Of a stretch of DNA of 24,000 nucleotides, positions 2,679 through 23,976 are shown piece by piece. The translations under genes were made by a program, and so were the position numbers. Position 1 is the stretch's first letter; the number at the start of each line of letters is the position of its first letter. A model generated the notes under the pieces. That model saw only the letters and a list, made by a program, of their open reading frames with translations, did no database searches and was not told the DNA's origin. This stretch comes from Methylocaldum szegediense (GTDB lineage Bacteria; Pseudomonadota; Gammaproteobacteria; Methylococcales; Methylococcaceae). Location: the NCBI RefSeq assembly GCF_949769195.1, contig NZ_OX458334.1, positions 1,723-25,722 of the forward strand, given 5' to 3'.

Positions 2679-2877
2679 GCTGATCTCCTTAAAATTGGCG
2701 CGAGATTATTATTTATTCTTGAGATTTAAAAATAAACTATAGATATTTTTGTGGAGCTAAGATCTTTATTGATGTATACGAAAAACGTTTGTTTACCGTA
2801 TAGCTAAAGCCGCGCCCCGGAAATCCCGATTTTCGTGGCTTCCAGGGCGGCGTTTTTCGATGGGTTTTCCGTATAGG

Positions 2878-3114
2878 TCAAAGCCTTTCCAAATACCGCT
2901 CGAATTCGGCCTTGCCGAACCAGTCCACCAGCGGCCTGTCGCGCCCGGGCAGATCCCACTGGATCGCCACCGTGTACCCGTCGCGGCTTGACTGGTCGGC
3001 TTTCGCGACAGTCCCGGCCGTTCCCCTCGGCACGCCGGAAAATTGGACCGTCGTCCGTATCCGAACCCCTTGTAAGGCCTCGGCTTCCCCTTTTGTGAAA
3101 TATCTCTCTGTCAT
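2878..3114 (-). CDS. Hypothetical protein, coupled to the upstream XRE regulator
   Basis: The start at MTERYFTKGEAE (ATG 3112-3114) overlaps the stop of the XRE gene as ATGA (3111-3114). The longer track ORF (to 3177) would run antisense through the XRE gene. Confidence 0.5.
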   Translation of the reverse strand: MTERYFTKGEAEALQGVRIRTTVQFSGVPRGTAGTVAKADQSSRDGYTVAIQWDLPGRDRPLVDWFGKAEFERYLERL

Positions 3115-3350
3115 GGCTGTTTCCTTGAGGCGGCAATCCGCTTGTCCTCTTCGGGCAGTAGGTCGACGGAGGCGCAATTCAGGGCGCGCGCGATGAGGCG
3201 CAATGTCTCCATTCTGACGGAAGAATCCTGCCCCGACTCGATCTTTGATATCGCCGCCTGCGTGACCTTGCCTTGCGTGTACCTGGCCAAATCTCGCTGA
3301 GACCAGCCTCGCGCTTCACGCTTTGCTTTAATAATTTGTCCGATGCCCAT
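3111..3350 (-). CDS. XRE-family helix-turn-helix transcriptional regulator
   Basis: Typical Cro/C1 HTH: GQIIKAKREARGWSQRDLARYTQGKVTQAAISKIESG....METLRLIARAL. Confidence 0.8.
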   Translation of the reverse strand: MGIGQIIKAKREARGWSQRDLARYTQGKVTQAAISKIESGQDSSVRMETLRLIARALNCASVDLLPEEDKRIAASRKQP

Positions 3351-3485
3351 TCTTCATAACCGTTGTGAGTAGCACTCCGATAATTGTAGTTATCAGGCCG
3401 CAACGGACGAAAGCAAAACCTTAAGGCGCGCATCAGACTGGGTTTCCGGGAACCTGGGCGGGAGGGCACCGCCCTCCCGCTCCGG

Positions 3486-3980
3486 CTACCGAATCGAAAG
3501 CCGCGTGCCATTGACCATCCGGGCACCGGGAACTTCCCGGCCGGCATTGATCGCTTCCTTGATCGCCGCCTTGTCGATCCTGACAAGGATTTCGGTTTCC
3601 TTGAACTCGTCCGGGACCGCCGCCTCGTCGAATATGTCCACGGCGGGCGGGTTCTTCTGGACCGAGAGCACGAACCAGGGCGAAGGGATTTTCTTCATGC
3701 CCATCACCTCCATCCCGGTTTTTAAGTAGTCCCGCAGCCAGCGGGCGCGGTTTTCCAATGCCTTCCGGCGCTTGGCCATTTTCTCTTCCGCTTGCTTGAT
3801 CGCCTCCGCCTCGGCTTCCATCTGGCGGGCGAACGCGGCGACATTCACGGCCTTCCGCTCGAATTCGCCCTCGATCGCTTCCAAGGTGTCGGCCACGGTT
3901 TCCGGCGGAATGTCGGCATCCGGATCGGTGAAGACGTCCAGGGCCTCGAGATATTTTCTTTCGATTTCGTAGAGCTTCAT
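3486..3980 (-). CDS. Siphovirus Gp157-like protein
   Basis: MKLYEIERKYLEALDVF...IEGEFERKAVNVAAFARQMEAEAEAIKQAEEKMAKRRKALENRARWLRDYL matches the Gp157 family pattern. The start was moved to ATG 3978-3980. The 337-aa track ORF carries an R/G/P-rich N-terminal extension that overlaps the next gene. Confidence 0.65.
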   Translation of the reverse strand: MKLYEIERKYLEALDVFTDPDADIPPETVADTLEAIEGEFERKAVNVAAFARQMEAEAEAIKQAEEKMAKRRKALENRARWLRDYLKTGMEVMGMKKIPSPWFVLSVQKNPPAVDIFDEAAVPDEFKETEILVRIDKAAIKEAINAGREVPGARMVNGTRLSIR

Positions 3981-4030
3981 GGCATCCCTCCTTCGTAGCG
4001 GCCGGAACGGCCCGGCCGCTCCGGTCGCGA

Positions 4031-4948
4031 TCAGAACGGGCACTTGTCGGTTTCGGCGTCGGCTATCTGGGCGTTTTCGTAGGCCAGGCGCTGCGCCTCC
4101 TCGTCGGCCCACTGCCTGAGCTTGACCAAGAGCTTTTCGAACTGGGCCGGCGAAAGATCGGGGAAGTGATCCACCTTGCACGCCTTTCTGACCCATTCCT
4201 TGACCCGCTCCCGGTCCAGGCCGTAATCCCGGATCGTAGCCTCCAGGCGCCGGTGATCGGCGGCGCTGATGGTCGGCCTTGCCGTCCGATCGGCCGGCGG
4301 TTCCGTCTGTTCCGGCTTCATGTCCTCCAGATCCTGCGTGAACACTTCGCTTAAGCCAGCCATGCGCAAGGTCGCATCGATATGCGCCGACTTCTCGGCC
4401 ATCTTGAGCGCCTTGTTCAAATCGCCGCAGTCCTGGGCAATGCCGCGGGCGCCTACGCCGTCGGCCACCACTCGCCCGGATGCGTCCCGGATCTCGCACC
4501 GGATAATGACGTGCTTGAGGTCCACGCCCCGGAGCGCGGCTTGCTCGTAGTCATGGAGAGTGGGGAACGTCACGGAAACGCCAAGCATGCCGCAAATCTT
4601 CTCCGCCCCCGGCTTCCAGAGGCTCGGCTTGCTCCAGTGCCGCGGGTCGGCGCACTCATGCGCGCGGCCGTGGGCCGCGAGCTGGCACTTTTGCTTGCTC
4701 GCCGTGTGGATGCGGCCGTAGTCGGTGCCTTCGACGAGCGCCGAGCGTATCCACTCCATAAGCGCGGCGCGGTTCGCCTTGCGACGGTCGAGTCCCGCGC
4801 GGAAGACTTCCGTAGGCAAGTCCAGCGGGGATGCCGGGGCGCCGTGCAGCGCGACCACGTTCCTGGATTCCTGGGCCGCGGCCGGGATGCCGGCTTGTAC
4901 CGGCTCCGAAGAAACAGGGGCGGGTTGTTTTCTTTCTCTTGCTGCCAT
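4031..4948 (-). CDS. Phage-type recombination-module protein (possible ERF/Rad52-like single-strand annealing protein)
   Basis: 305-aa ORF immediately upstream of the gp157-like gene. Segments SLWKPGAEKICGMLGV and LNKALKMAEKSAHIDATLRMAGL resemble annealing-protein motifs. The function call is tentative. Confidence 0.45.
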   Translation of the reverse strand: MAARERKQPAPVSSEPVQAGIPAAAQESRNVVALHGAPASPLDLPTEVFRAGLDRRKANRAALMEWIRSALVEGTDYGRIHTASKQKCQLAAHGRAHECADPRHWSKPSLWKPGAEKICGMLGVSVTFPTLHDYEQAALRGVDLKHVIIRCEIRDASGRVVADGVGARGIAQDCGDLNKALKMAEKSAHIDATLRMAGLSEVFTQDLEDMKPEQTEPPADRTARPTISAADHRRLEATIRDYGLDRERVKEWVRKACKVDHFPDLSPAQFEKLLVKLRQWADEEAQRLAYENAQIADAETDKCPF

Positions 4949-5581: not shown

Positions 5582-5829
5582 AACAAATACTCCTATTTAT
5601 CTATTTCAAAATAGGGCTTCTTTTGTTCCTGGATAGCGACTCCAGGAACCCGCAAAAGCCCGTCGCGGCTGCTGGTTTCTCCCTTTTACGTGCCGAGCCT
5701 ACCAGCAAAAGAGCACGGTATAATGATAACTAAAGTTATCACTCTGGGCAACAAAAAAACACGTTTAAATTCGATAATAAATACCCTCCTTATACTGCGC
5801 TCAAACACTTCCATTAAACCATTAGATAC

Positions 5830-6429
5830 TCAGAAAATACCCGCTTGACCGGAAACCCACCGGAAAGCCCCGGCCCACACGCCGGAGCCAGAAATCGGAA
5901 CCCACGCCCCCGCCCCCAAGGGCGGGAGCAACCGGCCGGCGAACCCGACCGGGAAGGCGAACACCGGCAGGCCGCGCGAAACCGCGCAACTGGCGGCCAG
6001 CAGGGAACCGCGCGAGACAGGCGAAGCGAAGAACACCACGCACCCCGCCGAGGCCTGCGCCACCACCGCCCGAGTGCGCGCGACAAGGCGGGCGGACAGA
6101 GGCACGGACGATGGGCCGCCGGCCCACCACGCCACCGAACCGCCGGCGGCCGCGAAGGCCTCCACGGCGGAAACCGCCGAAGCCGGGCCGGCGCCCGCGC
6201 CGCCGGGGCCGAAGGCGCACAGGCACGAAACCCGCGCGGCAGGGACGCCGCGCCCCGACGGAGCCACGGCGCAGCCAAGGACGGCGGCATCGACGCCAAC
6301 ACAGCAGCCCACCGCGAGCGAACGCCCCGACGCCATCAGCGACCGGCACACGGCCGCGACCAAAGCGGAGGCCTCCGGCGGCAGCGAGCGCGAACCCGCC
6401 ACCGATACGACGGCGCGAGGACTAGCCAC
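5830..6429 (-). CDS. DprA/Smf-like Rossmann-domain protein encoded almost without adenine
   Basis: The frame of track ORF 5830..6858, with a proposed GTG start at 6427-6429 overlapping the upstream stop (GTGGCTAG). It aligns by eye to the E. coli Smf core: VSVAGSRSLPP / IVGSRNPSPYG; GCCVGVDAAV / SGLARGIDGVA; ARTRAVVAQASAGCVVFFASPVSRGSLLAASCAVSRGLPVFAFP / [42 protein letters not shown]. Only 15 A occur in 600 coding-strand nt. Confidence 0.5.
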   Translation of the reverse strand: MASPRAVVSVAGSRSLPPEASALVAAVCRSLMASGRSLAVGCCVGVDAAVLGCAVAPSGRGVPAARVSCLCAFGPGGAGAGPASAVSAVEAFAAAGGSVAWWAGGPSSVPLSARLVARTRAVVAQASAGCVVFFASPVSRGSLLAASCAVSRGLPVFAFPVGFAGRLLPPLGAGAWVPISGSGVWAGAFRWVSGQAGIF

Positions 6430-6893
6430 GGCCGAACACCCCAGCCAGGCAAGCCAGCGGCCGGAGCAAGCCGCGGGCCACGGCCACCGACACGCCGGGA
6501 GGCAAGCACACCTTGACCGCGCAGACCGGCACGGGCAGGCCGACAGCCGAGAAGACCGGCGAACCGGCGGAACCAGGACGGGCCACGGCGCGCCACCCGA
6601 GCCGCGACGCCACCAAGGCCGCGAACAGCCCGGCCGCGGCCGGAGACCGGACCGGAACGAAAAGGCAGGCGGGCGCCGCCGAGAAACAGGACGAAGCCGA
6701 GAACACCCGCACCGCCCACACAAGCCGGCCGCAGCGACGAGCCACGACAGGCGCCGAGCGCCGGACGGCGGGAACGGAAACGAAACCGGAACGAGCCATG
6801 ACACACCCCCAAAACCGAGAACCAAAACCGCCCCGCCAACCCCGGCGGGACACCCCAAAAGAGAGAAAAACCGGAAAAAAGAGAGAAAACGCC
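5847..6893. other. Extreme strand-composition tract: + strand nearly T-free, - strand nearly A-free
   Basis: A hand count finds 14 T in 1047 nt on the + strand (about 1.3%). There is no T at all from 6515 to 6798 (284 nt). The flanks have ordinary T content. Confidence 0.9.
6422..6799 (-). CDS. Adenine-starved ORF (125 aa), unknown function
   Basis: ATG at 6797-6799 is preceded by GGGGGTGTGTC. The coding strand has only four A: one in the ATG start, two in a single AAG codon (6512-6514), and one in the TAG stop (6422-6424). The product consists of G/A/V/L/F/S/P/R/C/W, apart from the initiator Met and one Lys. Coding status is unproven because A-free sequence cannot contain stop codons. Confidence 0.35.
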   Translation of the reverse strand: MARSGFVSVPAVRRSAPVVARRCGRLVWAVRVFSASSCFSAAPACLFVPVRSPAAAGLFAALVASRLGWRAVARPGSAGSPVFSAVGLPVPVCAVKVCLPPGVSVAVARGLLRPLACLAGVFGRG

Positions 6894-7101
6894 TTCAGAA
6901 CAGACCGGGGCGAGCACGGCCGCAAGGGCAGGCGCGCCGTACTGCGACGGTGGGAGGTTGGTGGACTGGCTACGGAGAGACTAGCGACTGGTTGCAGCGA
7001 ACCTTGAGCGGCGCGCCTGGCGAAGCGAACCCTTGCGGCCGCGCGCAGTCCCCGGCTACAAACCGGGCGTTTTCTCTCTTTTCCGGTTTTTCTCGTGGGG
7101 T
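6851..7101. promoter_or_regulatory. Long imperfect hairpin (~250 nt) upstream of the A-starved ORFs
   Basis: Outer stem: 6863-6893 pairs with 7066-7094, about 29 bp with a 2-nt bulge. Inner stems: 6905-6910/7050-7055 (6 bp), 6918-6928/7030-7040 (11 bp perfect), 6929-6938/7010-7019 (10 bp perfect). A GCGAAGCGAA bulge sits at 7020-7029. Confidence 0.6.
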
Positions 7102-7909
7102 ACTCCCCACGCCTTTGTCCGAGCCGCAGCGAAGCCGGAGGGCGCGAGCACGGCGACCCGGAGCCATGCGGAGGGGCCGCGCGCAGCGACTGGAGGCGAA
7201 GCGGAGGCGAGTTCTCGCGTCTGGCGTCAGCCAGTCGCGCAGTCAACCCGGAGCCGAGCGGAGCTGGGCGAGCACCTTGGATGGATGGCGAAGCGCAGGG
7301 AAAGCGACGCCGGGTCTCGCTTCGGCGCTCGGATCGTCAGTCCAAGCCGGACAGGCGGGAGCATGGATACTGCCAATCCGTTGTCGGATCTACCGTGGGG
7401 TGAGCGCGAAGGGCGCGGCGTCGCGAGCTTGCGAAGCTCGAGAGCAGAGCCGCGCGCCTTCGGTACCGATACCCGACTTCTGACCGGGCTGGGAGCCAGG
7501 GACGGCGGCAAGGGACGTGACGGCAGGGATGCCGGCGCGGTCCCTTGCGGGTGGGAGATGGACTTTACGGGTTTCGCGTGTGAAAGCCGCCCCGGAAGCA
7601 TAGCGTGCTCCGGCTGGCGCGCGAGCTGCGAGGAGCGCGGGCATGCCCTAAGCATGCCCATAAGCGCGACGTAGCGGCTCGGCGAGCGCCTGTCGGGATG
7701 CAGCGCGTGCGTGAGGGGGCGGTTTTGTTGAGCGAAAGGGATTCCGTTTGGGGGGGCGGAAAGGGGGGAACGCCGAGCGCGGCTTCCTCTGGAAGCAAGC
7801 GAGGCGGGGGATGTAACGCGTCAAATGGCCGTGGTTATCAACACTTTTGTCTTTTTTACCAAGGATCACATCGGATTTCCACTTCCGTTTTCTCGACTCA
7901 ATTTGAGCC

Positions 7910-8997
7910 GTCTTCGTCTCTTCTTCATCAGGTCTCAGTTCAAACGCGAGCCGACCACTGCCTTTGAAAAGGTTCAGGCGTCTTAATCCCTTCTTAATCA
8001 GGTCTCGTTTCAAACGTCATCGAGTACTCGACGTGTGAGGAAAACACTCACGTCTTAATCCCTTCTTAATCAGGTCTCGTTTCAAACACGACTCGGTGGT
8101 TCGGAATGGCTCAGGACCAGGTCTTAATCCCTTCTTAATCAGGTCTCGTTTCAAACCCAAAAGCGCCCAGGAATTGTTGTTGCAATACGCAGTCTTAATC
8201 CCTTCTTAATCAGGTCTCGTTTCAAACCAATCAAGCAAGCAAGAACCGATAGGAGAATATCGTCTTAATCCCTTCTTAATCAGGTCTCGTTTCAAACTCG
8301 CCGGACTACTCACTGGCTAATGATCGAAAAGGTCTTAATCCCTTCTTAATCAGGTCTCGTTTCAAACGATCGAACAACTTCAAAAACAATTTCCTTTGGT
8401 CCGTCTTAATCCCTTCTTAATCAGGTCTCGTTTCAAACCCATGAAGATTATCAACCTGACTCCTCACCCAATGTCTTAATCCCTTCTTAATCAGGTCTCG
8501 TTTCAAACATGTATACCCGTCAGAGCCTCCTGTCTGCGGCAGTCTTAATCCCTTCTTAATCAGGTCTCGTTTCAAACATGGGCTCATACTACGAAACTGA
8601 TTTAGGCCTGCGGTCTTAATCCCTTCTTAATCAGGTCTCGTTTCAAACGCTAAGGTAGGTAAAAAAATGGCTAAAAAAGAAATGTCTTAATCCCTTCTTA
8701 ATCAGGTCTCGTTTCAAACAAATGGGAAGTCAACTTTGGCAAAGAATAAGGTCTTAATCCCTTCTTAATCAGGTCTCGTTTCAAACGGGGCAGATAATGG
8801 CAGATAAAAATTCGGATTGGTCTTAATCCCTTCTTAATCAGGTCTCGTTTCAAACCAATCCAGAAGCCGAACTCGAGGTCTACAGCCCCGTCTTAATCCC
8901 TTCTTAATCAGGTCTCGTTTCAAACAGAATTTGCCCTTGCGGTTGCTTATAACTGGGGGCAGTCTTAATCCCTTCTTAATCAGGTCTCGTTTCAAAC
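7910..8997 (-). CRISPR. CRISPR array: 15 identical 36-nt repeats, one degenerate terminal repeat, 15 spacers (31-36 nt)
   Basis: The + strand repeat GTCTTAATCCCTTCTTAATCAGGTCTCGTTTCAAAC starts at 7980, 8052, 8121, 8192, 8262, 8332, 8403, 8473, 8542, 8613, 8684, 8751, 8820, 8890 and 8962. A degenerate copy with 6 mismatches lies at 7910-7945. The - strand call is inferred from the degenerate repeat marking the trailer end, and from the - strand reading ending in ATTAAGAC (compare ATTGAAAC-type tags). The array itself is near certain. The strand call deserves about 0.6. Confidence 0.9.
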
Positions 8998-9108
8998 AGC
9001 TCGCGTCTAAAACACCCTCATATTCAATGTCTTACAAAGGGGGTTGTAGAAAATTCTCCGTTCGGAAAAGTTACGCTCATTCTCCCGAGAGTTCATCGTT
9101 TGCCTCTA

Positions 9109-9471
9109 TCAGGCGCTAACCTTCCTCTTGGTTCTGGTCTCGTCCTGCTGGCGCTCGATAATGGCGCGGCTCCGTTCAAGCTCGAAGATTTCGACTCCCT
9201 GCTCGCGGGTAATCTTCCCTTCCTCGATCAACATACACAAGCCTTTCCGCATCGCGTACATGCGGATCACGAGCGGATCGCTCGGCGCCTCTTGGCGCAG
9301 TCTTTCGATGCCGTCCCATGCCTCCTGCTGGTAGCAGTAGTTGTCTGGGTCAGTTCTCGGGTCAGGAGGAGGGTTCTCTTCCGCCGCAGTTACGCTGATC
9401 GGAATCGAGAAGAAAAGCAACGCGGCGAGCGCCGGCGGAATCGCTACATTTTTAAGGTCCGGAATCGTCAT
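9109..9471 (-). CDS. Small secreted protein, unknown function
   Basis: The start at MTIPDLKNVAIPPALAALLFFSIPISVTA looks like a signal peptide. Its ATG (9469-9471) overlaps the recombinase stop as ATGA. Confidence 0.55.
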   Translation of the reverse strand: MTIPDLKNVAIPPALAALLFFSIPISVTAAEENPPPDPRTDPDNYCYQQEAWDGIERLRQEAPSDPLVIRMYAMRKGLCMLIEEGKITREQGVEIFELERSRAIIERQQDETRTKRKVSA

Positions 9472-10273: not shown

Positions 10274-10987
10274 ATGCTGTTTTTAAGGATCAAAAACCGC
10301 AATCGGAAACGGGCCGACGGGCGGCCATGGGCGGAAGCGCGGGTCATCCGCAAGACCCGGAAGTTTGGACAGGTCATCGAGGACCGGGGAATTTCAACCA
10401 AGCGCCCCGTGCTCGTCACCGGCGCGCACGCCTCCGGCAAGACCTACTGGCTGGAGCGCCTCCGGGCGAACGCCGGGCGCGTGTGGCCCGGCATCGGCGC
10501 CGAGCCGCTTCACCTCGCCGCGACACGCCCTCTCTCGGCTTGGACCGACGTCAAGCACCTCGAACTCTGGTGGGCGGGGCGCGAGAACTGCGACGACGAC
10601 CGCCATTGGTCCAAGCTCAAGGCCTGGGAACGGGTGGACGCCCTGCCGCTTTACCTCCAGGAAACCGGAGCCGTGCTGTTCGTCGACGACGCCCACGGGC
10701 TCAGCGGCCGGAAGCTCAAAGTCGCGCAGGAATGCGTCCGGGCCGCCAAGGTCTGGGTCATGGCCGCGGCCGACGAGGGCCGGATCGCGCCGGGCCTGCG
10801 CAAGGACGTCATGGCCGCCGAACCGCAGATATTCAGGCTCGATACCGAAGTCGCCTACGACGCGACCCCGATACTCATGTGGATCCTCATCACCCTGGCC
10901 TTCGCCGCCGGCTCGTGGGAACTCGGCATGGCCTTGGCGGGGCTCAAATTCCTAGGGAGCGGACGCCGTGCCGCGAAACAGACCTGA
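10274..10987 (+). CDS. P-loop NTPase with C-terminal transmembrane helix
   Basis: Walker A VLVTGAHASGKT, Walker B-like AVLFVDDAH, and a C-terminal hydrophobic helix ILMWILITLAFAAGSWELGMALAGL. Confidence 0.65.
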   Translation: MLFLRIKNRNRKRADGRPWAEARVIRKTRKFGQVIEDRGISTKRPVLVTGAHASGKTYWLERLRANAGRVWPGIGAEPLHLAATRPLSAWTDVKHLELWWAGRENCDDDRHWSKLKAWERVDALPLYLQETGAVLFVDDAHGLSGRKLKVAQECVRAAKVWVMAAADEGRIAPGLRKDVMAAEPQIFRLDTEVAYDATPILMWILITLAFAAGSWELGMALAGLKFLGSGRRAAKQT

Positions 10988-15443: not shown

Positions 15444-15770
15444 TCAGTCTTTCCCTTTCAGAATCTGCTCGATTTTCGCGTCGATCGCCGGCAACAGCGC
15501 GTCGAGGCAAAACTTCTGCATGCTGTCCGGCGTGTGCTCGGCGATGTACCTCAGCTTGAGAAGATAGGGCTCCGGAAGGCGCAGGTTGTAGACCTTGAGC
15601 ACGTCGTCGCGGATACCGGGCTGGTTCCATGGCAGCGCGGCGGATTCATACGATATGGTATGAGATGATTTCATATCATCCGATATTTCGCTGCGCCGCT
15701 CGGCGCCGGCGATGAAGTCCTCAACTCCCGGCATCGTGTGCGCCTTCGGCTTGCGGGTGAACTTACTCAC
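15444..15770 (-). CDS. ParG-like ribbon-helix-helix partition adaptor (start uncertain: 15770 GTG, 15734 ATG or 15674 ATG)
   Basis: Immediately downstream of parA. The C-terminus VYNLRLPEPYLLKLRYIAEHTPDSMQKFCLDALLPAIDAKIE has a strand-helix-helix pattern. The N-terminal region is basic. Confidence 0.55.
   Translation of the reverse strand: MSKFTRKPKAHTMPGVEDFIAGAERRSEISDDMKSSHTISYESAALPWNQPGIRDDVLKVYNLRLPEPYLLKLRYIAEHTPDSMQKFCLDALLPAIDAKIEQILKGKD
15646..15688. promoter_or_regulatory. Partition-type repeat cluster B
   Basis: Contains CGATATGGTATG (15651-15662, identical to 16533-16544) and ATGATTTCATATCAT (15665-15679, identical to 16432-16446). Confidence 0.5.
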
Positions 15771-16410
15771 TGAACACCTCCTGATACAGTGCTTCGATTT
15801 CCTCCGAGGCCTTCGGGTCCTTTGGCTTGAGCTCGTCGACACAAAGACCGTCGCGGGCTGCCTTTCGATACGCGATCCGGTCCCGAATCACTACACCTGA
15901 CAAGATCAGGTGCGAGAACTCAGCCAGGATGTCCTGGGCATCCTGGGACTCGTGAACCGAAGGGTTGGTCGAAACTCGGCTGATCACCACCCATGCCCGA
16001 AGATTCGGGTTGAACCCCTGGGCGCTGCTCACCAGCTCGTCCATGCGGTCGAGGGTCCAGATATCGAACTGGCTCGGCTGGATCGGGATATAAGCCTTGT
16101 CGGCCACCACCAGGCCGGCTCGCAGCTCCACCGAATCGCGACCGCCGGCATCGATGATGATGTCCTGGTATCGCTTGGCCAGGTCCTGAACCTCCGACTG
16201 GAGGCCTTTTCCGAACTTCTGCACGCAGGCCACCCGCCGCGGCTTCGCTTCGGACTCGTCCCGGCTCTGCGCCCAATAATTCGCGCTGCCCTGCTGGTCG
16301 GTGTCGATCAGCAGCACATCACGGCCCGCCAATGCGCGCTTCGCGGCTAGGTTGGTAGCCAGCGTAGTCTTGCCGGTGCCCCCTTTCTCGCCGCCGATTA
16401 GTATGATCAT
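15763..16410 (-). CDS. parA: ParA/ParF-type partition ATPase
   Basis: Deviant Walker A GGEKGGTGKTT, then LLIDTDQQGS. The small (215 aa) type Ib size class. Confidence 0.9.
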   Translation of the reverse strand: MIILIGGEKGGTGKTTLATNLAAKRALAGRDVLLIDTDQQGSANYWAQSRDESEAKPRRVACVQKFGKGLQSEVQDLAKRYQDIIIDAGGRDSVELRAGLVVADKAYIPIQPSQFDIWTLDRMDELVSSAQGFNPNLRAWVVISRVSTNPSVHESQDAQDILAEFSHLILSGVVIRDRIAYRKAARDGLCVDELKPKDPKASEEIEALYQEVFSE

Positions 16411-19164: not shown

Positions 19165-19587
19165 ATGGTCGATACCCTCACTCCTGCGGAGCGTAGCGAA
19201 CGCATGGGACGCGTCCGCGGCAAGGACACCAAACCGGAAATGAAAGTACGTCGCCTTGTGCATGGCATGGGCTACCGTTACCGCCTACATCGGCGTGACT
19301 TGCCGGGTTGCCCCGATCTTGTCTTTCCTCGGCTTCGCAAGGCGATTTTCGTGCATGGGTGCTTCTGGCACCGGCACCCGGATCCGGAATGTAAGCTCGC
19401 CCGCCTACCGAAATCCCGTCTGGACTTTTGGTGGCCAAAGCTGGAAGGGAATCGCCGTCGCGACGAGGCAAATCAGGCCGCCCTGCTAGCCCTTGGCTGG
19501 CGGTTTCTTGTAATTTGGGAGTGCGAAACAAAAAAAACACAATATCTAGTGATCAAAATAAAAAATTTCCTAGAGGAGGACGAATAG
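19165..19587 (+). CDS. vsr: Very-short-patch repair endonuclease
   Basis: RSERMGRVRGKDTKPE..R..LH..G.RYRLH...LPG.PD.VF......IFVHGCFWH.H matches Vsr. Confidence 0.9.
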   Translation: MVDTLTPAERSERMGRVRGKDTKPEMKVRRLVHGMGYRYRLHRRDLPGCPDLVFPRLRKAIFVHGCFWHRHPDPECKLARLPKSRLDFWWPKLEGNRRRDEANQAALLALGWRFLVIWECETKKTQYLVIKIKNFLEEDE

Positions 19588-19590
19588 AAT

Positions 19591-20775
19591 ATGCGGGCGA
19601 TTGAGTTGTTCGCCGGGGCTGGCGGCTTGGGAATCGGCGTGAGTCGCGCTGGATTCAATCCCGAGGCGGTCATCGAATGGGATGATTATTGTTGCGATAC
19701 CATCCGCGAGAATCAGGCACGTAAACTAGACCCCATCGTGCACTGGCCTCTCTTCCACGGCGATGTGCGGGACTTCGATTTCCGTAGCGTCCGCGGCGAC
19801 GTTGACCTTGTATCGGGCGGTCCACCCTGTCAGCCTTTCTCGCTTGGCGGCAAGCACCGCGGTCCCCTAGATGATCGGGATATGTTCCCGCAAGCCATCC
19901 GCGCGGTGCGTGAATTGAAGCCAAAGTCCTTCATATTCGAGAACGTCAAAGGACTGACCCGCGCTAGTTTCGCTAATTACCTTGAATATATCCGCTTGCG
20001 TCTCACATACCCTGAACTTGTCGAGCGACGAGCCGAGGCTTGGGAAGATCACCTTGCTCGCCTTGAGCGGCATCATACCCGCGGAAAACATAACGGCTTG
20101 CATTACCACATCGTCATGCGGACCCTGAACGCCGCGGATTACGGCATTCCGCAGCGCCGCGAGCGTGTCTTCCTGGTTGGCTTCCGCGCCGATCTCGGCA
20201 TTAAATGGAATTTTCCAGACAAAACGCACGATCAAGACGCCCTTCTGTGGTCGCAATGGCGGACGGGTGAGTATTGGGAGCGGCACAAGGTAGCCAAACG
20301 CCACCGACCGGAAGGCGGTAAGGGCAAGGCTCGCGCCTTCGCGTTGAAGGAACCGCCACGACTCGCGCCGTGGCGCACGGTGCGCGATGCTATTTCCGAC
20401 CTGCCAGACCCGGAGAAAAACCCTGATGCGGCCGCGGCCTTCCATAATCACCGCTTCCAACCCGGAGCCCGCAGCTACCCCGGCCACACTGGCAGCCCCT
20501 TGGACGAACCCGCAAAGACATTAAAAGCCGGAGATCATGGCGTTCCTGGTGGCGAAAACATGCTTTTGCGCCCGGATGGATCCGTTCGTTATTTCACGGT
20601 GCGCGAGAGCGCCCGCCTACAAACATTCCCAGATGAATTCCTATTCCATGGATCGTGGACTGAAACCATGCGCCAGCTTGGAAACGCTGTTCCCGTTGAC
20701 TTGGCTTACATCGTCGCTAGTAGCGTCAAAACACACCTTGATCTTACCGCCACGCCAGCCAAGAACAAACCATAA
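19591..20775 (+). CDS. dcm: DNA (cytosine-5)-methyltransferase
   Basis: Motif I ELFAGAGGLG, motif IV GGPPCQPFS, motif VI ENVKGL, motif VIII QRRERVFLVG, motif X GNAVPV. Confidence 0.95.
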   Translation: MRAIELFAGAGGLGIGVSRAGFNPEAVIEWDDYCCDTIRENQARKLDPIVHWPLFHGDVRDFDFRSVRGDVDLVSGGPPCQPFSLGGKHRGPLDDRDMFPQAIRAVRELKPKSFIFENVKGLTRASFANYLEYIRLRLTYPELVERRAEAWEDHLARLERHHTRGKHNGLHYHIVMRTLNAADYGIPQRRERVFLVGFRADLGIKWNFPDKTHDQDALLWSQWRTGEYWERHKVAKRHRPEGGKGKARAFALKEPPRLAPWRTVRDAISDLPDPEKNPDAAAAFHNHRFQPGARSYPGHTGSPLDEPAKTLKAGDHGVPGGENMLLRPDGSVRYFTVRESARLQTFPDEFLFHGSWTETMRQLGNAVPVDLAYIVASSVKTHLDLTATPAKNKP

Positions 20776-21533
20776 TGCCAGGCTATCTTGAATTTGAATT
20801 CGACCTTCCCGGAGCGCTTCTTGCTAATCTCACGCATCTCTTTGACAGCATGAGTTCCGCCGCGCTATTGCCAAAGAACCTAATTGACATCCCTGATGCG
20901 CAGGGGGTGTATCAACTCCATCTTCGCGGTTCGTTGGTATATATCGGCAAAACGGACGCCGAAGCTGGGCTACGCAAGCGACTTGAACGCCACGCCCGTA
21001 CCATTCAGCACCGTTGCAACCTCGATCCTAACGAAGTCAGCTTCAAAGCCGTGCGAGTGTTCGTCTTCACTGCCATGGACCTTGAATTTCAACTTATCAA
21101 GCATTACAGCGCTATTTCTCCGGTCCCTTGGAACAATAGCGGGTTTGGATCGAACGATCCAGGTCGACGCCGTGACCATTCCAAGGTTAAACCCAATGGC
21201 TTCGACGAACAGTATCCCGTTGATATCAATCGGGAGATTGATTTATGCCTTTCATCGCCCATCAGCGCCGCTGATGCTCTAGCCGCGCTTAAGAAAACTC
21301 TACCCTATACCTTTCGTTTCGAGACTAAAGACGACCGTAGCCGAAAACCACACCCCGATTTAGTTACCACGCAAGTAAATCTTCCCGCAGCCCCCTACAC
21401 TACGCGTCGTTTCCTTGAAAACCTGACATACCAGCTACCCACTGGTTGGCAGGCGACGGCTCTTCCAAGCCGCGTTCTCCTGTATAAGGAGAACGAGGAC
21501 TACGAATTTGGAACGATAATCGCAAGATCATAG
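20775..21533 (+). CDS. GIY-YIG-type restriction endonuclease (Eco29kI-like)
   Basis: GVYQLHLRGSLVYIGKT....LRKRLERH is a GIY-YIG core. The start ATG overlaps the last base of the methyltransferase stop codon. Confidence 0.6.
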   Translation: MPGYLEFEFDLPGALLANLTHLFDSMSSAALLPKNLIDIPDAQGVYQLHLRGSLVYIGKTDAEAGLRKRLERHARTIQHRCNLDPNEVSFKAVRVFVFTAMDLEFQLIKHYSAISPVPWNNSGFGSNDPGRRRDHSKVKPNGFDEQYPVDINREIDLCLSSPISAADALAALKKTLPYTFRFETKDDRSRKPHPDLVTTQVNLPAAPYTTRRFLENLTYQLPTGWQATALPSRVLLYKENEDYEFGTIIARS

Positions 21534-23100: not shown

Positions 23101-23976
23101 TCATTTTGTGACCAGGTTCACAATTTGTTCCCCGTCCGCGGGCACCGCCGCCGGGAAGCCTTGATCGGCTTCCGTTTCGGCCCTCTCGAACTCGAGAACA
23201 ATGTCCTTCGCGCGCCAATTCCTCACTTCGCCGAGGGCCTCCAGTTCCCCCATCGCTTCTCGCAGGCGCTGCCGAAACTCCCGAACGCTCTTGCTCTCGG
23301 AGCCGCAGAGATGGAGCAGCCCGTCAATGCCGACACGGTGACTGACTCCGGGCGGATGCGACCGGACGAAACAGTGGATCCACTTCGCCAAATCCGAGCG
23401 CAGTGCGCTTCGGGTCTGCCACGCCAGCAGCGAATAGCCGTCGTCGAACAACATGGCGAGGCGGGGATTCACGGTCAGCACGTACTCATTAGTGTCGCCG
23501 TCGTGAAAGAACTCGTGCACCAGGGAACCCGTGTAGCTGCGGTTCCCGACGCCAATCTCGACGGCGCAGGCGGTCAGTCGCGTGAGCACCGCTTTCAGCC
23601 ATTCGCGGTTTTGCTTGCCTTTCGATCGTCCGATGCCGTTCAAAAAACCGTACGCGCTGAAGCGGACCTGCGAGCCGAGGGTGTGGTGTCGGGCAAGATG
23701 AACGGCGAACAGCCATACATCGAGATCGGACTGGTCCAGCTTCATCCCGGTGTAGCGGATCGTGACGCCGGGCCAGCTGGCGATCAGCTCCTTTTCGGCA
23801 TACCGGCGCCGCCCGCGGCGAACTACGCCGAACAAGGCCGATCGGACAATCGCGTTGGGAACGCCGCGATTGGGTTCGGGCCACAGCGGCAATTGAATGA
23901 AAGACTTCGAAGGAGAGGACGGGCGTCTACGCTGGCGAAGCGCCAGCGCGGCGGTTTGACTGTCCCGCGGATCCAC
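23101..23976 (-). CDS. trfA: TrfA-family plasmid replication initiator
   Basis: QLPLWPEPNRGVPNAIVRSALFGVVRRGRR is the characteristic TrfA N-terminal motif. GTG start near the window edge. Confidence 0.75.
   Translation of the reverse strand: MDPRDSQTAALALRQRRRPSSPSKSFIQLPLWPEPNRGVPNAIVRSALFGVVRRGRRRYAEKELIASWPGVTIRYTGMKLDQSDLDVWLFAVHLARHHTLGSQVRFSAYGFLNGIGRSKGKQNREWLKAVLTRLTACAVEIGVGNRSYTGSLVHEFFHDGDTNEYVLTVNPRLAMLFDDGYSLLAWQTRSALRSDLAKWIHCFVRSHPPGVSHRVGIDGLLHLCGSESKSVREFRQRLREAMGELEALGEVRNWRAKDIVLEFERAETEADQGFPAAVPADGEQIVNLVTK

Follow-up and report, generated by a model that had tools for sequence, protein, structure and literature searches.

Two overlapping genes written almost without adenine lie on the minus strand of a 24,000-nucleotide (nt) stretch of Methylocaldum szegediense DNA (contig NZ_OX458334.1, positions 1,723 to 25,722; here called the window), which is part of a plasmid with a TrfA/KfrA-type backbone. 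The first gene, open reading frame 1 (ORF1), encodes a small basic protein, and the second, ORF2, encodes a stand-alone domain of the DprA type. Judging from comparisons among relatives, both are real, translationally coupled genes under purifying selection, and their avoidance of adenine is a family-wide property that acts on nucleotides and is not required by the protein. The constraint evidently works on single bases over the leader, both cistrons and, where seen, the terminator, in many hosts. Our preferred explanation, held tentatively and at a little under an even chance, is that adenine exclusion is a nucleotide-level adaptation of a short transcription unit of its own, which would make the message or its template immune to base-specific attack.

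Two coupled genes in an adenine-poor tract

On the minus strand, positions 5850 to 6939 hold 16 adenines in 1,090 nt (1.5%), a count whose binomial P value is ~4e-88 against the remainder of the window, which averages 21.3% A/T. The plus strand, which is the template strand, is correspondingly thymine-poor. Its longest thymine-free runs measure 284, 128, 95, and 94 nt, and every one of them lies within this tract; elsewhere in the window the longest stretch without any one base is 49 nt. The AT skew of the tract is about +0.8 (+0.79 to +0.85 at positions 6001 to 7000). The tract starts in the right arm of an inverted repeat and ends with the ORF2 stop codon, after which a new promoter follows. 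An original prediction, made from the sequence alone, had described this near-adenine-free tract and the two ORFs, and its coordinates and counts for them were all correct on recount.

ORF1 (6422 to 6799, minus strand) has 125 codons plus a TAG stop and contains 4 adenines in 378 nt: one in the ATG, two in the single AAG codon, and one in the TAG. The sequence GGGGG sits 6 to 10 nt upstream of the ATG, and none of the 126 third codon positions is adenine. The product is very basic, with 14 Arg, 1 Lys, and no acidic residues. ORF2 (5830 to 6429, minus strand) starts at a GTG within GTGGCTAG that overlaps the ORF1 stop, and it runs for 199 codons plus TGA with 15 adenines in 600 nt, 4 of them at its 200 third positions. 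Its product lacks Lys and Asn altogether and contains two Glu and a single Asp.

Because one strand is without adenine and its complement without thymine, no stop codon is possible, and all six frames of the tract are stop-free, with overlapping ORFs of 162 to 469 amino acids (aa) in several frames on both strands. Open frames alone are therefore no evidence of genes, and comparative data are needed. At the DNA level, megablast searches of plasmids and phages with the tract and with the full window yielded no useful match. A search with the ORF2 protein returned more than 357 relatives at 90% clustering (~190 to 200 aa, 55 to 91% identity), and an exhaustive profile search returned 952 clusters at 50% identity with E <= 0.001, 571 of which had E <= 1e-10. 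The DNA set of relatives comprised 42 genomic and 10 IMG/VR loci, cited below by L numbers, plus several contigs. In both ORFs, third codon positions vary two to three times more than first and second positions: the mean pairwise differences at positions 1, 2, and 3 are 0.24, 0.17, and 0.54 for ORF1 and 0.35, 0.27, and 0.62 for ORF2. The median ratio of nonsynonymous to synonymous divergence (dN/dS) across homologues is 0.16 for ORF1 and 0.27 for ORF2, values that speak for purifying and not neutral evolution. The stop/start overlap of the two ORFs, or a near-abutment, recurs in relatives. The codon-position variation and the low dN/dS, backed by the many relatives and the confident fold of ORF2, are our reason for regarding ORF1 and ORF2 as real genes, and together with the recurring junction they sustain the claim that the two are coupled. 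The original prediction had wavered between a functional reduced-alphabet protein and a decayed dprA relic; the former stands and the latter falls, given that the family shares the trait under purifying selection, and a one-off A-to-G hypermutation is ruled out on the same grounds.

A reading in which the tract is a non-coding, strand-biased element or a dprA relic, and the ORFs are artefacts of stop-free sequence, can point to the composition, which alone opens six frames, and to the score of ORF2 under the Pfam gathering threshold. Set against it are the codon periodicity and dN/dS of 0.1 to 0.3 in the proposed frames, the invariant motif residues, the confident DprA-like fold, and the conserved stop/start junction. 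We regard this reading as already refuted by the comparative sequence data and give it practically no weight.

Among the other frames, a 469-aa antisense ORF (6074 to 7483, plus strand) matched no family, and the codon periodicity fits the minus-strand frames instead; it is one of the long spurious ORFs that stop-free composition produces. The same composition produces N-terminal extensions in many database entries. Many entries of the ORF2 family are fused to upstream open sequence, reaching 250 to 450 aa, or are called in other frames, and public-database annotation of the family is unreliable. Gene callers mis-handle stop-free tracts.

By profile and model comparison, the ORF2 product is a stand-alone DprA-type Rossmann domain, a distant relative below the PF02481 cut-off and not a canonical DprA, and it represents a new, distant branch of the DprA fold. 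Pfam PF02481 matched ORF2 with E = 1.3e-5 (24.9 bits) over profile positions 45 to 189 of 212, missing the gathering score of 29.6, and it matched 9 of 11 diverse family members, with a best E value of 4.1e-10. Profiles of the ORF2 family in turn matched the solved structures of Streptococcus pneumoniae DprA (~1e-4) and Rhodopseudomonas palustris DprA (3e-4). An AlphaFold model of ORF2, built from 30 family members, reached a predicted local distance difference test score (pLDDT) of 92 and a predicted template modeling score (pTM) of 0.88. The top Foldseek matches of this model in the PDB were the DprA proteins of Helicobacter pylori (HpDprA; E = 4.5e-5, template modeling [TM] score 0.58), R. 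palustris (TM 0.61), and S. pneumoniae, with TM scores of 0.57 to 0.61 overall; ShosA (8zva) was matched with TM 0.60. These searches, with a profile match below the gathering score and a confident model that finds DprA first, bear out the likeness along the Rossmann core that had been noticed by eye in the original prediction. The dprA equivalog models are failed by a wide distance (TIGR00732, 21.4 bits versus a cut-off of 191; NF008007, 18.7 versus 495). At 199 aa, ORF2 is the core domain only, without the SAM-like N-terminal domain and without the C-terminal winged-helix domain.

HpDprA inserts one thymine of single-stranded DNA (ssDNA) into a pocket whose key residues include Arg52, Lys137, Phe140, Arg143, and Asn144, and it binds dT35 much better than dA35 (PMC3950713). 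In a profile alignment, HpDprA Arg52, Pro135, Phe140, Arg143, and Asn144 align with R14, P110, L115, R118, and T119 of ORF2; the position of Lys137 is the only pocket position that is variable in the ORF2 family. R14, in the GSR motif, is invariant in the family, as are L115, R118, and Asp47, and Thr119 is nearly so. With DprA/Smf (PF02481), a recombination mediator of natural transformation, ORF2 thus shares the Rossmann domain and the GSR, GxD, and R-x-x-x-R-(N/T)-R motifs, but it differs in being plasmid-borne, placed behind a small basic partner gene, adenine-free, and without flanking domains. ShosA, the DprA-like antitoxin of the ShosTA system, is likewise a DprA-like domain outside natural transformation (PMC11961720), but its size and context differ, and ORF2 is not paired with a ShosT-like phosphoribosyltransferase. 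PADLOC gave no match for ORF1, ORF2, or four downstream ORFs that would place them in ShosTA, and the upstream neighbor of ORF2 is the 125-aa basic protein.

ORF1 is a conserved protein without a family assignment, having found no match in Pfam, PHROGs, PADLOC, or NCBIfam. Relatives with 50 to 57% identity were found in 8 loci by tblastn, and there are 9 close database relatives. Its sole Lys, Lys96, lies in the motif VKV and is conserved in nearly all of these. The AlphaFold model of ORF1 is an alpha/beta structure of moderate confidence (pLDDT 76.6, pTM 0.72), and no solved structure matched it. In L008 (1880 to 2240) and L051 (9480 to 10001), an adenine-free cistron also precedes the DprA-like gene, and no ORF1 relative was detected there; that cistron has a hydrophobic reading in L008 and spans ~175 aa in L051. 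The partner gene ahead of the DprA-like gene may therefore be variable, with the adenine-free rule retained.

Adenine avoidance across the family

In most of the 52 loci, the coding strand of the ORF2 gene contains 0.3 to 8% adenine, with flanks at 15 to 33% adenine and 36 to 69% GC. In AT-rich hosts the thymine content of the gene climbs to 35 to 39%, and adenine is still excluded. The tracts of L049 to L051 are more extreme than that of the window, with 16 to 18 adenines in 1.3 to 1.5 kb. Adenine occupies 0.8 to 5.3% of four-fold degenerate sites in ORF2 relatives versus 14 to 32% in other ORFs of the same loci; for the window itself this test is uninformative, as the GC-rich neighbors are also low in third-position adenine. 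Synonymous divergence is high (dS 0.2 to 1) while adenine remains excluded.

The untranslated sequence follows the same rule in part of the family. In the window, the leader (6800 to 6893, minus strand) begins at a conserved GGCGTTTTC after GAAGG and has no adenine in 94 nt; within it are a small GC hairpin with a T-run (6852 to 6829, minus strand) and an adenine-free Shine-Dalgarno sequence, GGGGG (6810 to 6806, minus strand). GGGGG, and not GGAGG, serves as the Shine-Dalgarno sequence in the window and in most relatives. Leaders of the window, L003, L004, L043, L058, and L059 have 0 to 2 adenines per 100 nt. In L008 and L051, a promoter-like island opens the adenine-free tract and an intrinsic terminator closes it, with normal composition directly beyond. 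From these tract limits and the adenine-free leader, adenine-freeness belongs to the transcription unit and not to the protein alone.

The exclusion of adenine at the nucleotide level is what yields a protein alphabet of ten letters (G, A, V, L, F, S, P, R, C, and W). In the median family member, 91% of the residues belong to it, with a range of 47 to 99.5%. At one extreme, the 192-aa P0184 has a single residue outside this alphabet, the invariant Asp. At the other, P0219 is of normal composition, with 47% of its residues in the alphabet and free use of Lys, Glu, Gln, Ile, and Asn. Normal-composition relatives, whose genomic context on record consists of contigs of at most 1.2 kb, retain the invariant G41, C42, G45, D47, S84, R114, L115, R118, F133, S139, G141, G174, and W176. 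The ORF2 family is thus a natural series that leads from a 20-letter to an 11-letter protein while the fold and a small set of functional residues stay unchanged.

Adenine has also been regained. In L007, L010, and L012, from hosts of 36 to 38% GC, ORF2 is back to 15 to 22% adenine with dN/dS of 0.23 to 0.34, and ORF1 of the same transcript stays at ~5%; third-position adenine is 7 to 9% in ORF1 versus 19 to 29% in ORF2. As both the normal-composition relatives and these adenine-regained ORF2s are still under purifying selection, the protein does not require the avoidance. What adenine is retained lies in the codons for start and stop and in those of the invariant Asp, of Thr119 and Gln195, and of Lys96 in ORF1. 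The expectation that adenine would be kept where it is needed holds for the wider family too, in which Asp47 is invariant, Thr119 nearly so, and ORF1 Lys96 (VKV) kept in nearly all relatives.

One apparent counterpart elsewhere was rejected. In Chromatiaceae loci, T-poor tracts had suggested a second adenine-free gene on the other strand, but they turned out to be ordinary genes for Ala/Glu/Arg-rich coiled coils, lying on the same strand. The gene in question is conserved, lies ~2 kb downstream of the DprA-like gene, and encodes 370 to 430 aa (L023, 11586 to 12701; L024, 11874 to 13091; L033, 12199 to 13494). The C-terminal half of the protein abounds in Ala, Glu, Arg, and Gln and has a coiled-coil look, and the poverty of the gene in thymine comes only from that composition.

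Explanations for the missing adenine

In the mechanism that we favor, ORF1 and ORF2 would form a separate short transcription unit in the TrfA/KfrA-type plasmid backbone. Its message, lacking adenine and read from a template lacking thymine, would be left untouched by agents that need those bases, and the unit would still be expressed when other messages cannot be. The ten-letter protein alphabet would be the price of this exclusion, with adenine left only where function requires it. The selective agent, the early expression, and a single-strand promoter are elements of this scheme that we infer. On its RNA face, which we prefer, an adenine-free message might escape adenine-directed RNases or RNA-modifying toxins such as CmdT; by analogy with such enzymes this is possible, if still somewhat doubtful. 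Many toxin RNases need adenine. CmdT attaches ADP-ribose to the N6 of adenine where GA dinucleotides occur in single-stranded RNA, Shine-Dalgarno sequences among them, and thereby blocks translation (PMC11618068). The RNA face fits all members, those with a hairpin and those that lack one. On its DNA face, which by analogy we think unlikely, a T-free single-stranded template would be ignored by thymine-preferring ssDNA binders or by enzymes of the type of DarT, which modifies ssDNA (PMC11618068).

Several observations weigh against immunity to base-specific attack as the explanation. The leader is only partly depleted in L005, L044, and L062 (7 to 13 adenines per 100 nt) and undepleted in L007, L010, L012, L034, and L047 (21 to 33 per 100 nt). 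The selective agent is a guess. An agent acting at the RNA level does not account for the trait in the ORF2 family in particular (only that family was surveyed), and the message, being U-rich and strongly structured, would not escape U-directed RNases. Neither a relaxase, nor a type IV secretion system gene, nor a recognized oriT was found, either in the window or in the annotated related contexts up to a distance of 10 kb, and five related plasmids are typed as non-mobilizable (PLSDB). For the same reasons, neither the plasmid establishment region suggested in the original prediction nor a conjugative leading region is demonstrated. The template version faces further difficulties, as the large hairpin described below is absent in the extremely adenine-free L046, L050, and L051, with ordinary-looking promoters in L046 and L051, and the repeat that forms it may consist of two mirror-image copies of promoter plus leader, or divergent promoters.

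This inverted repeat covers positions 6860 to 7095 of the window and would form a ~235-nt hairpin (DNA fold, -95 kcal/mol; z = -7.6 for either strand). On the gene strand its left arm is A-rich, and its right arm is T-rich and continues into the leader. The architecture recurs in relatives, with 72 consensus pairs of which 25 show compensatory changes (5 loci), and an inverted repeat is also present in a distant Chloroflexia locus (z = -9.3). An automatic hairpin scan at tract starts was too crudely centered for a census, and individual folds were used. One arm carries -35/-10-like elements, TTGCGG-18 nt-TACAAA (7033 to 7062, plus strand), which in duplex DNA point away from ORF1; the equivalents in L007 and L010 are TTGATG/TTGATT-N16-TATCAT. 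On the operon-side arm there is a good -35 (TTGACN in relatives) and no recognizable -10, and a promoter scan found nothing there. The -10-like element of the opposite arm (TATCAT in L007 and L010, TACAAA in the window) falls in a conserved 8-nt internal bubble, which thus lies at the -10 position. In a plus-strand hairpin, the elements at 7033 to 7062 would be candidates for the non-template side of a promoter into ORF1, and the inverted repeat is by analogy a candidate Frpo-like single-strand promoter. In Frpo, secondary structure mimics duplex DNA and drives early genes (PMC11541004). As with Frpo/ssi promoters, the window has a long hairpin with -35/-10-like elements directly upstream of ssDNA-handling genes; it differs from the leading regions of conjugative plasmids in having neither an oriT nor a relaxase nearby and in its non-mobilizable relatives.

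The repeat gives rise to an alternative in which the trait serves transcription from ssDNA. A Frpo-type repeat promoter would be active only on the plus strand when single, as after conjugation, transformation, or replication, and the template would be T-free so that T-preferring ssDNA binders cannot stand in the way of RNA polymerase; among them would be the unit's own DprA-like product, SSB, and RecA, along with T-directed enzymes such as DarT. The conserved large hairpin with its compensatory changes and its bubble at -10, found also in the Chloroflexia locus, is in keeping with this, as is an operon-side arm without a usable duplex -10. Frpo promoters take the form of hairpins resembling duplex promoters (PMC11541004), HpDprA has a thymine pocket and a dT35 preference (PMC3950713), and the pocket residues are retained in ORF2. 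Transcription from ssDNA would account for the trait in a DprA-like gene particularly and for the frequent presence of a hairpin promoter. The hairpin-less loci L046, L050, and L051 and the ordinary promoter-like sequences in L046 and L051 argue the other way, however, and so do the missing oriT and relaxase and the non-mobilizable relatives. Moreover, the template is still 41% cytosine, likewise a pyrimidine, and the left arm is a good duplex promoter toward an array of GGA hairpins, so that the repeat is possibly a pair of divergent promoters. We hold this alternative to be doubtful. Selection at the level of translation is improbable in our estimate. Adenine-free codons can be read by U-less anticodons, and ten amino acids would suffice once anticodon nucleases or tRNA-depleting defenses had left the cell without tRNAs for Lys, Asn, Asp, Glu, Gln, His, and Tyr or without those with U34 at the wobble position. 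Known anticodon nucleases do target tRNAs reading NAN codons. The avoidance of adenine at all codon positions, the third included (0 of 126 in ORF1, 4 of 200 in ORF2), and at four-fold sites is compatible with such selection, and in some lineages depletion is stronger in the ORFs than in the leader. It does not fit the untranslated leader and Shine-Dalgarno sequence, which are equally adenine-free in six loci, nor the promoter-to-terminator limits in L008 and L051, which take in untranslated sequence.

A gene-specific mutational bias, be it repeated deamination of A to G or error-prone copying of the transcript's sense strand specific to adenine, as diversity-generating retroelements perform it, would yield a protein rich in Ala, Val, Gly, Arg, Cys, and Trp like ORF2, and the tract does coincide with the transcription unit. 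The trait nevertheless persists over ~950 clusters and many phyla with sharp boundaries, and in AT-rich hosts adenine is replaced by T and not by G (T is 35 to 56% at four-fold sites). In L007, L010, and L012, moreover, cistrons of one transcript differ in third-position adenine. This difference within one transcript and the replacement by T argue against a transcript-wide mutational process and fit selection on each cistron. Conserved adenine-containing codons stand exactly at invariant residues, no reverse transcriptase was seen in the annotated contexts, and the sole deaminase gene, in L058, is ~3 kb off; we consider a mutational origin very improbable. The last possibility is that selection acts on the protein, for a reduced alphabet without Lys or acidic residues that escapes modification or a protease, and that the nucleotide bias is a by-product. 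The extreme alphabet, with its median of 91% and maximum of 99.5%, and the strongly basic proteins might be read so. Adenine is avoided at synonymous sites and in the leader too, however, the alphabet is exactly that of the ten amino acids with adenine-free codons and so follows a nucleotide rule, not a chemical one, and normal-composition relatives are likewise under purifying selection. The synonymous-site and leader data largely refute this reading, which we would put among the least probable.

Returning to immunity from base-specific attack, its logic has a parallel in ACA-less genes, which are used in MazF expression systems (PMC9102682). In ACA-less mRNAs that survive MazF, as in restriction-site avoidance, the recognized sequence is removed and immunity to a sequence-specific enzyme results; those cases remove a motif of 3 to 8 nt, whereas here a whole nucleotide is missing from ~1.1 kb, naturally and with ten amino acids given up. 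The protein-design and origin-of-proteins literature contains designed reduced-alphabet proteins in which, as in ORF2, an alpha/beta domain folds from about ten amino-acid types. The ORF2 family, in contrast, is natural, widespread, and under purifying selection, and its alphabet is set by a codon rule and not by prebiotic availability. Neither a natural transcription unit from which one nucleotide is excluded nor a natural series of 10- to 11-letter proteins was found in the searchable open-access literature, and a term search found no mention of adenine in two recent papers on the composition and content of leading regions (PMC13478746, PMC11541004).

We can imagine, and hold loosely as a possibility, a widespread natural class of "three-letter" genes, in which selection keeps units free of one nucleotide and so hides a plasmid message or ssDNA template from base-specific immunity. 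If true, base-directed attack on RNA or ssDNA would be a major force during plasmid establishment, and nature would have shown that ten amino acids (G, A, V, L, F, S, P, R, C, and W) and one Asp are enough to make a nucleic-acid-binding fold of the Rossmann type. The exclusion of one base over hundreds of lineages at 36 to 69% GC points to an agent that reads single bases and not motifs. Should that agent be a defense enzyme, adenine-free units would mark what a plasmid must express first, and base-free ORFs would be a simple computational signature for finding more such genes.

Other causes were considered and set aside. Restriction-site avoidance does not apply, as short palindromes are not depleted (91 versus 80 four-base palindromes per kb), and no enrichment of Chi sites was found in the tract. 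A special RNA structure of the message was also rejected: its minimum free energy is only ~1.8 standard deviations below mononucleotide shuffles, and composition explains the strong folding. The unit has almost no GGA (two), yet avoidance of GGA, and with it of CsrA, needs no total loss of adenine. No known RNA family was found in 5600 to 8200 apart from weak matches to CRISPR repeats.

Plasmid context and neighboring elements

The backbone genes of the window include KfrA (116 to 1072), ParA (15763 to 16410), and a TrfA-type initiator (23101 to 23976), all on the minus strand. Two resolvases are also present, together with a plus-strand restriction-modification cassette (19165 to 21533) consisting of a Vsr mismatch endonuclease, a C5 cytosine methyltransferase, and a GIY-YIG Eco29kI-like endonuclease. 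On the minus strand, ORF2 is followed by small ORFs, a 305-aa protein (4031 to 4948), and Gp157, which PHROGs labels "Mu Gam-like end protection." In relatives the order is ORF1, the DprA-like gene, two small ORFs, DUF932, an AAA_24 protein, and Gp157. This order is shared by the Nitrosococcus halophilus plasmid, plasmid A of N. oceani ATCC 19707 (NC_007483, with the genes at 2832 to 4129), a plasmid of Methylobacter sp. YRD-M1 (CP091426), a Methylolobus aquaticus contig, and metagenomic contigs; a helix-turn-helix regulator and RepA come next in several plasmid-like contigs. The AAA_24 domain is carried by Sak4-type annealing proteins. This context suggests that ORF1, ORF2, and the downstream genes form a module for the handling of ssDNA and of DNA ends.

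In N. oceani plasmid A, a hicA-hicB toxin-antitoxin pair directly follows the DprA-like gene in the same orientation (L045, 2201 to 2807), and a HicB-domain gene occupies the equivalent place in the N. halophilus plasmid (L043, 10881 to 11249).

A CRISPR array at 7910 to 8998 of the window has 16 copies of a 36-nt repeat, GTCTTAATCCCTTCTTAATCAGGTCTCGTTTCAAAC on the plus strand, spaced 67 to 72 nt apart, and the copy nearest the inverted repeat is degenerate. The minus-strand end of the repeat, GAAGGGATTAAGAC, presumably resembles type VI-A repeats. No cas gene is visible in the window. A tie between the array and the adenine-free module was rejected, the array being present only in this window and not beside the module in other loci.

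Just past the ORF2 stop, a sigma-70-like promoter, TTGCCC-17-TATCAT (5723 to 5751, minus strand), heads the next, normally composed unit and is overlapped by the palindrome GATAACTTTAGTTATC (5740 to 5725). In L051, TCTCATCTTATTTTAATGTTCC followed by a -10-like TATTCT or TATACT occurs at 9375 to 9440 and at 10840 to 10900, ahead of the adenine-free unit and of the next unit, which suggests a shared regulator of the two.

On the strand opposite the adenine-free genes, each locus has 2 to 8 short hairpins in one orientation, with varying stems and a conserved CA-NGGA-TG core. They lie at 7064 to 7900 of the window on the plus strand. In L003, L004, L007, L010, L012, L043, L044, L058, L059, L062, and L063 they lie on the minus strand upstream of the large hairpin. 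An RNA containing these hairpins would, from its position, be driven by the sigma-70-like promoter that the left arm of the inverted repeat carries. The array has no significant Rfam match. With the motif copies folded as RNA, several of the eight in L062 show GGA in a loop, which resembles a CsrA/RsmA-sponge small RNA.

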